Below are positions 61,862 to 63,091 of a stretch of 64,000 nt of DNA, piece after piece. Every line of letters begins with the position of its first letter. Within the stretch, counting starts at the first letter, position 1. The notes beneath the pieces were generated by a model. It had not been told where the DNA came from and did not search any database. It was given only the letters and a program-made list of their open reading frames with translations. The position numbers and the translations under genes were made by a program. Source of the stretch: Escherichia coli (GTDB taxonomy: Bacteria; Pseudomonadota; Gammaproteobacteria; Enterobacterales; Enterobacteriaceae); assembly GCF_024502345.1 (NCBI RefSeq), contig NZ_JALDNN010000001.1; one strand, written 5' to 3'.

Positions 61862-63091
61862 TCAGTTGCTGGCGGCTTCTCGTTTCGGGAAGCTGAACAA
61901 CAAGTCACGATAGTATTCGTACTGTTTTTGTCGTAGCTCGATTTCGCGTGAGAGGCCTTCTGAAATCGACTTAGTGTAAGTATCAAATTTATCAAGAATT
62001 TCAACGATCTGAACTTGTTTGATGAGTGAAATCATTGGTACTTTCACTTCAAGTATTTGACCTTTACGCAAATTTGTTTGATCAACACCATTGTCATGTT
62101 TCAGCAATTGCGGGGTTCTATTTAAAAAATAGTGCAAAAACTTAGGGAGTAATTCATTACTGTTTTTTACTGTAATTCCACCAATACGTTGGTTTAAAGT
62201 GTATTTATGATCTTCATCAATAATAAATGTTTTTGAGAGCGCCTTGCCATTGGGCAGATCACTCATAACTAATAGAATGTCGTCTTTAAAAAGAGGGCAT
62301 AGCTGTTTGTTCGAAAACTTGGCGACTTCGCCATCAGTAGATATAAACTTAGAGTTTACAACAATATATTTACCGTCTTTTGATATGTCTTTTTCATGCC
62401 CCTTTCCATTAGCAAAAGTTGAGACTTCCTCCAATGTCTTCCACTCAACCTCATCCTCTTCAAAACTCAGCAATTTATCACGATAGTAGTTGTACTGTTT
62501 TTTACGTATGTTAAGCTCAGCGGTAAGCTCAGCGGTAAGCTCAGCGGTAAGTGCAGTAAATTTATCCAGAATCCGAACAATTTCAGACTGGATGGCAAGG
62601 GATTTTCCCGGGGCGCTGGGACAAGGGATGGGTATTTGATAGTTTAAAATTGCATCTTTACTGCCTCGAGGCATCTTTGCCCCTTTAGCGTGCTGCATAC
62701 TGTAAGAAAAAAATGAATCCGACGATAATGCATAGTAGAGATATTCTGGACTAATAATTTTTTTACAGTCTGCTAAAATGCGTATAGCAAGGACATCACC
62801 ACTGCACCCGCCATTATTCTCCGCCATCCAAACTTTCTTTAAATATGGGCGAATATTACCTAAAAGAATATCACCTGGCTCATAGGCAGTTAAACGTGCC
62901 GTATTAGGCTGATAGGTGGCATCAATGCGACCGCCTTTATCAGCAAGGAGATTATCAACGCCAACGAATGAAGTGGCATCAAGTTTATCAGCATCAACTT
63001 TGGTTGTTGAATACCCGGCGATATCGCCCACTGCTTTCCATTCAACCTCAACCCCATCCAGCAATTTTTCCAGATAACTCATCTCGCTCAT
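61862..63091 (-). CDS. hsdS: Type I restriction-modification specificity subunit (HsdS), type IC-like with central TAEL repeats
   Basis: 409-aa ORF, two target-recognition halves separated by ...[33 protein letters not shown]; C-terminal conserved [14 protein letters not shown]. Confidence 0.85.
62510..62557 (-). repeat. 12-bp tandem repeat tract inside hsdS (3 perfect copies encoding AEL-T plus one degenerate copy TALT)
   Basis: GGTAAGCTCAGC x3 plus GGTAAGTGCAGT on the plus strand; codon-anchored to HsdS residues 179-194. Confidence 0.85.

Follow-up and report, generated by a model that had tools for sequence, protein, structure and literature searches.

Type IC restriction-modification systems form a family, assigned on the grounds of complementation, cross-reacting antibodies and sequence (PMC3874165). 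The organisation of their specificity subunit, HsdS, begins and ends within D2, the C-terminal conserved region, and conserved regions flank two variable target recognition domains (TRDs). The sites recognised are bipartite and asymmetric, with m6A on both strands, and the length of the spacer tracks the number of four-residue TAEL repeats in HsdS (PMC3874165). EcoR124I, with two repeats, recognises GAA N6 RTCG, and EcoR124II, with three, recognises GAA N7 RTCG; EcoDXXI (TCA N7 RTTC) and EcoPrrI (CCA N7 RTGC) also have three repeats and N7 spacers (PMC3874165). The hybrids EcoDR2, EcoDR3, EcoRD2 and EcoRD3, obtained from EcoR124 and EcoDXXI with altered repeat number, acted as predicted, and the change in repeat number was attributed to unequal crossing-over (PMC3874165). 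In terms of the methylated bases, three repeats correspond to a Me-interval of 8, and an interval of 7 is expected for two (PMC3874165, Tables 1-2). A study of 2023 converted EcoR124II into EcoR124I by deletion of one unit (PMC10644984). The same ruler principle has been described in NgoAV of N. gonorrhoeae, also a type IC system, where natural strains carry 0-3 LEAT repeats and the methylomes gave GAC N6 TGC for one repeat and GAC N7 TGC for two (PMC6789123).

The window, that is, the whole stretch of 64,000 nucleotides of Escherichia coli DNA analysed here, contains at 61862..63091 on the minus strand an open reading frame with an ATG start that encodes a type IC specificity subunit of 409 aa. 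The protein matches EcoR124 HsdS over its full length (7bst_A, E=7e-64, aligned end to end). Identity to 7bst_A is clustered in residues 1-18, 154-219 and 356-403, so that the N-terminal, central and C-terminal regions hardly differ from their counterparts in EcoR124 HsdS, and both TRDs are unrelated to the EcoR124 ones. Among 42 HsdS homologues the invariant or near-invariant columns fell in these same places, namely the N-terminal region, the central conserved region (D1) and the C-terminal one.

The other two subunits are encoded on the same strand. The hsdR gene (58630..61746, 1038 aa, full length) matched TIGR00348 with E=4e-220 and EcoR124I HsdR (2w00_A) with 2128.6 bits across residues 1-1037 of 1038. 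The 3' part of hsdM (63088..64000; TIGR00497, E=1e-108) runs past the end of the window, and 296 of the 303 visible C-terminal residues of HsdM are identical to EcoR124 HsdM (7bst_D), with seven differences. On the minus strand the order is hsdM (>64000..63088), hsdS (63091..61862) and hsdR (61746..58630), which is the type IC order; the stop codon of hsdM and the start codon of hsdS overlap in ATGA, and hsdS and hsdR are separated by a gap of 115 bp, in which a simple scan found no sigma-70-like promoter. The similarity of HsdR and HsdM to EcoR124, the layout of HsdS, the TAEL repeats and the gene order are thus all those of the type IC family. Because HsdR and the visible HsdM differ so little from the EcoR124 proteins, the system can be classified, from its sequence, as a chromosomal, island-borne type IC (EcoR124-family) restriction-modification system, and the same assignment made in the sequence-only reading was correct. 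That the host is E. coli is also seen in glcDEF, which in the window shows 99.9% identity to E. coli chromosomes.

Considering this arrangement, it may be asked if the system works in this strain. The hsdM gene could be damaged beyond the window, since its 5' part lies outside, or the operon could be silent in a decaying island, and the tract described below would then have no current phenotype. The island next to the operon is indeed degraded: of the integrase only the N-terminal 202 aa are left (56940-57548, minus strand), and transposase fragments of the IS6 family (IS26-like, 201 aa, 55426-56031) and of the IS3 family (C-terminal, 56079-56513) abut. However, hsdR and hsdS are full length without frameshifts, the visible HsdM is about 98% identical to the active EcoR124 HsdM, and the ATGA overlap coupling hsdM to hsdS is intact, so we regard an inactive system as unlikely.

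The repeat tract of hsdS lies at 62510..62557 (minus strand) and comprises three TAEL units. The plus strand reads GTTAAGCTCAGC GGTAAGCTCAGC GGTAAGCTCAGC GGTAAGTGCAGT at these positions, and the coding strand reads ACTGCACTTACC GCTGAGCTTACC GCTGAGCTTACC GCTGAGCTTAAC, corresponding to 16 residues; the three TAEL units are encoded at 62510-62545 and a degenerate TALT unit precedes them in the tract. Tandem Repeats Finder placed the perfectly periodic part at 62512-62551 (period 12, 3.3 copies, 100% matches, score 80), as one of seven tandem arrays across the 64 kb. The sequence-only reading had described a 12-bp TAEL-encoding tract in hsdS, and this description was upheld by the sequence itself, by Tandem Repeats Finder and by the shuffles given below; its translation of the tract also agrees with the coding strand. 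It had further counted three perfect copies plus a degenerate fourth, a count that depends on the register. With the unit as it was written, GGTAAGCTCAGC, only two copies are perfect; a third (62510-62521) carries 1 mismatch and the degenerate fourth carries 3. Three perfect copies are obtained only in the shifted register TAAGCTCAGCGG, at 62512-62547.

The unit GCTGAGCTTACC, allowing at most one mismatch, occurs three times in the 64-kb window, all of them inside the tract. In shuffled sequence 0.19 occurrences were expected and three were reached in 0 of 100 shuffles; the tract is not a chance feature. The same unit is present in 77 related loci and matches the unit in the EcoR124II mutagenesis primers of PMC10644984. 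Assemblies can miscount tandem repeats, and the true copy number might in principle differ from the one seen here. Yet the tract, with 40-48 bp, is shorter than any read, and its identical three-copy form is found in an independent metagenome contig and in 26 related loci, among which it is the most frequent three-copy form; with the observed unit count never reached in the shuffles, a chance or artefactual origin was rejected and its probability is negligible.

In order to locate the tract in the protein, an AlphaFold model of HsdS was built on the 42 homologues; the mean pLDDT was 72, and it was 77-94 in the conserved helices. The solved structure that best matched the model was again 7bst_A, the HsdS of EcoR124I. 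According to DSSP, residues 161-207 form one continuous α-helix (pLDDT 77-92) that holds the repeats, which are residues 182-193. This helix is D1, the central conserved region (residues ~161-207; 62471..62611, minus strand). A second long helix at residues 356-398 is its coiled-coil partner in the model; it corresponds to D2 (residues ~356-398; 61898..62026, minus strand), also helical by DSSP, and has no repeats. Of the TRDs, TRD1 (N-terminal) is located at 62612..63037 and TRD2 (C-terminal) at 62027..62446, both on the minus strand. The tract had been placed at the "hinge" between the recognition halves; the term is a loose one, as the tract is inside a long continuous helix of the coiled coil. 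In the translation, the distance from ILDKF to R(K/Q)KQY is 17 residues in D1 and 17 in D2. With three repeats, both strands of the coiled coil are of equal length, which fits the statement of a review that three is the "optimum" number of TAEL repeats (PMC3874165).

Among the enzymes named above, EcoR124II has three TAEL units in D1, built on the same DNA unit GCTGAGCTTACC, near-identical HsdR and HsdM, near-identical conserved regions of HsdS and the order hsdM-hsdS-hsdR. Both TRDs, in contrast, are different, with poor alignment outside the conserved regions, and therefore the half-sites differ. EcoR124II is encoded on plasmid R124, whereas the gene studied here is chromosomal and belongs to a tRNA-Phe-associated E. 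coli island. EcoR124I (PDB 7bst, 7btq and others) shares family and fold with the HsdS of the window, but has two TAEL units, and hence a spacer 1 bp shorter, and different TRDs. EcoDXXI and EcoPrrI coincide with the system studied here in their three repeats; in the EcoPrrI comparison, the window has no prrC between hsdS and hsdR. NgoAV resembles the enterobacterial alleles in having four-residue repeats in the central HsdS helix, in the ruler principle and in its natural copy-number variation; its repeat, however, is LEAT and it has an extra poly-G frameshift switch, which is absent here.

Taking these relationships into account, the tract is most probably the spacer ruler of a type IC HsdS, contained in D1, set for N7 spacing and changeable in copy number; we assign to this explanation as a whole a probability of about 0.88. 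The two TRDs would be kept apart by the antiparallel coiled coil of D1 and D2, and each TAEL unit inside D1 would add approximately one helical turn. The rule of one base pair per repeat is taken from the literature, and the version of it given in the sequence-only reading, with EcoR124I against EcoR124II and unequal crossing-over, was accurate according to PMC3874165. By analogy with its EcoR124II-type relatives, the enzyme of the window should have N7 spacing: three units would give the spacing of EcoR124II, EcoDXXI and EcoPrrI, that is, N7 for half-sites of 3 and 4 bp and a distance of 8 nt between the methylated adenines. Replication slippage or unequal crossing-over could add a unit to the perfectly periodic tract of 40 bp or remove one from it, and the resulting N6 or N8 variants would have a new specificity. 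Gain and loss would recur on evolutionary time scales and not as rapid phase variation.

The number of repeats in related systems was then surveyed, this comparison having been set as a test of the proposed switching, against which an invariant number would have counted. The number is not invariant, since tracts of 1, 2, 3, 4 and 5 copies were all found, and about half of the loci in E. coli genomes and metagenomes have two copies and 40% have three. The DNA unit is the same everywhere among the related loci. Among the best 120 protein homologues, a majority has two units; a single unit occurs in five, and three units in a few. Of the 1,095 E. coli records that matched, 60 were sampled at spread ranks, and their match lengths pointed to two copies in about 31, three in 24, four in 1 and five in 2. 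The sequence confirmed the count at four loci, with five copies in L001, four in L002 and three in both L003 and L004. The longest tract seen, of five perfect TAEL units, is that of L001 (E. coli JA0072 chromosome, NZ_CP070227.1), and it sits in an hsdS pseudogene cut by an IS110-family element. A variable-gap pattern applied to metagenomes retrieved 67 loci; two copies are present in 37 of them, three in 29 (of which two were counted twice) and four in 1. The same pattern, run on a set with one genome per species, gave a single match, in Mixta tenebrionis, with two copies, because the exact flanks that it demands make it too specific.

Evidence for changes of copy number also comes from alleles that share both recognition domains. 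When 175 complete HsdS sequences were grouped by both halves, with at most 2% difference, 95 TRD-pair groups were obtained, and 9 of them mix copy numbers, having the same two TRDs and a different repeat count. One of these mixed groups carries the TRD1 of the window, with 1, 2 and 3 copies. The nine groups imply that units have been gained and lost in nature recurrently and independently. The earlier suggestion that the system may switch specificity by gain or loss of repeats therefore stands in so far as the process is recurrent in relatives; for the allele of the window this capacity is something that we infer and not a change that was observed. The exact three-copy HsdS and in silico versions of it with 1, 2, 4 and 5 copies were all absent from a database of about 15 billion proteins, which is uninformative for this allele because the three-copy form is missing as well.

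The allele itself is a combination of parts known separately. The N-terminal half of HsdS is 100% identical to that of many database proteins with other TRD2s (e.g., P0019, P0028 and P0042), and the C-terminal half is 100% identical to P0015. The combination of this TRD1 with this TRD2 was absent from 5,426 complete E. coli genomes, and a coverage of at least 80% of the hsdS gene was not reached by any complete E. coli genome or PLSDB plasmid. In nucleotide sequence, hsdS is identical over its first 600 bp to E. coli CPE35 (L008), and over the stretch encoding TRD2 to E. coli MB15 (L010). Judging by these identities, hsdS is a natural mosaic, whose 5' half would come from the allele type of one strain and the 3' half from that of another. 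The alleles of CPE35 and MB15 have two-copy tracts with a synonymous ACA variant and that of the window has three perfect units, which places the junction of the mosaic within the tract or next to it.

The only other occurrence of the allele was in a metagenome contig, L073 (QZLR01000177.1), which encodes the identical 409-aa HsdS with three copies. Aligned with the window (61800-63000), its hsdS DNA is 100% identical over ~1.2 kb, whereas the hsdM and hsdR flanks diverge by 3-8% per 200 bp. This pattern indicates a cassette-like exchange of hsdS, presumably by homologous recombination between diverged type IC operons. The three copies of L073 amid diverged flanks mean that the copy number was stable across at least one transfer, and from this count the three-copy state is not highly unstable.

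These data also bear on whether the tract might be a fast-switching contingency locus, phasevarion-like, with high-frequency flips in culture and mixed N6/N7/N8 methylomes. The DNA of the three units shows no difference over 40 bp, copy number varies among otherwise identical alleles, and an idea of this kind has been raised for SSR tracts beside TAEL repeats (PMC7383803). Nevertheless, three units of 12 bp fall well short of classical contingency tracts; L073 retains its three copies despite flanks diverged by 3-8%; and 86 of the 95 TRD-pair groups are uniform in copy number, although many of these groups are singletons. A single assembled sequence, for its part, is unable to reveal heterogeneity. 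Phase-variable hsdS genes are recognised by a long simple-sequence tract or by invertible copies, with which they switch at high frequency within a clone, and here the tract is short and the map of open reading frames between 54 and 64 kb contained no second copy of hsdS and no inverted hsdS fragment. A classical contingency locus was rejected on the number of units and on the stable count in L073; rapid phase variation of the tract is unlikely, and we consider the full contingency behaviour very improbable. The slowly changing ruler is preferred, and with it the tract is already known biology, the textbook type IC spacer ruler, while the allele is a new combination of two known TRDs.

A possible half-site is suggested by Salmonella. 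From the end of the repeats onwards, TRD2 included, the protein is 100% identical to P0035, the HsdS of Salmonella Cubana CFSAN002050, whose locus also resembles that of the window in its genes (GmrSD/DUF262, hsdM, hsdS, hsdR and a small repeat protein) and differs from it in having two TAEL units and a different TRD1. Two type I motifs of this strain, GGA N6 ATTA and TCA N5 GTTY, are unassigned (PMC4393132), and the strain also has two unassigned type I methyltransferases. For the second motif, written as RAAC N5 TGA, the methylated bases were reported 6 nt apart. Since the expected Me-interval of a type IC enzyme with two repeats is 7, GGA N6 ATTA fits P0035 better. It may be, then, that TRD2 reads ATTA and that the enzyme of the window recognises [TRD1 site] N7 ATTA, a weak lead drawn from the Salmonella analogy, with at best somewhat better than an even chance. 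A literature search for the motifs GGA N6/N7 ATTA found no papers, and another by HsdS cluster names and accessions gave no enzyme names. A paper on ST131 methylomes was also considered as a source of half-sites and was dropped, as it concerns other type I families. Going further, one could speculate that the recombinant allele defines an uncharacterised type IC specificity, possibly [TRD1 half-site] N7 ATTA, and that the perfect 40-bp tract yields low-level N6/N8 subpopulations as bet-hedging against phages with the parental methylation, a scenario that we find improbable as a whole.

Beyond annotation the importance of the tract is small, being a classic example of spacer-length change in type I enzymes. 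The system may be annotated as type IC with an expected spacing of the EcoR124II type (N7), and the census describes in natural populations a mechanism that had been known chiefly from a handful of laboratory strains.

The surroundings of the operon are those of a recurrent module, in which an integrase, a small repeat protein, hsdR, hsdS, hsdM and a DUF262/GmrSD gene are found together in E. coli chromosomes and in Salmonella. In the window, the region 55426-57548 constitutes a decayed junction of IS fragments and the truncated integrase. Between this integrase and the hsd cluster, at 57744-57792 on the minus strand, there are the 3' ~49 nt of a tRNA-Phe, ending in ...TTCGATTCCGAGTCCGGGCACCA; scans with ARAGORN and Rfam, covering 50-64 kb and 52-64 kb, detected no complete tRNA. 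The fragment is probably an att-type remnant marking the island boundary at a pheV/pheU-type site.

A small open reading frame of 114 aa (58070-58414, minus strand) contains about six tandem repeats of 48 bp at 58113-58393, which encode units of 16 aa, KDDRLRTIATFDGKTL. An NCBIfam search with it gave no match; in related E. coli islands it is annotated as '5-fold beta-flower protein'. This frame is always situated between the integrase or the tRNA fragment and hsdR, and the length of its product varies by strain (96, 112 or 114 aa). Farther from the operon, the Hfq-binding sRNA isrC was located at 52808-52930 on the minus strand by a full-length Rfam match of 140 bits, and it adjoins an open reading frame with proline-rich tandem repeats of 18/30 bp at 52350-52466.
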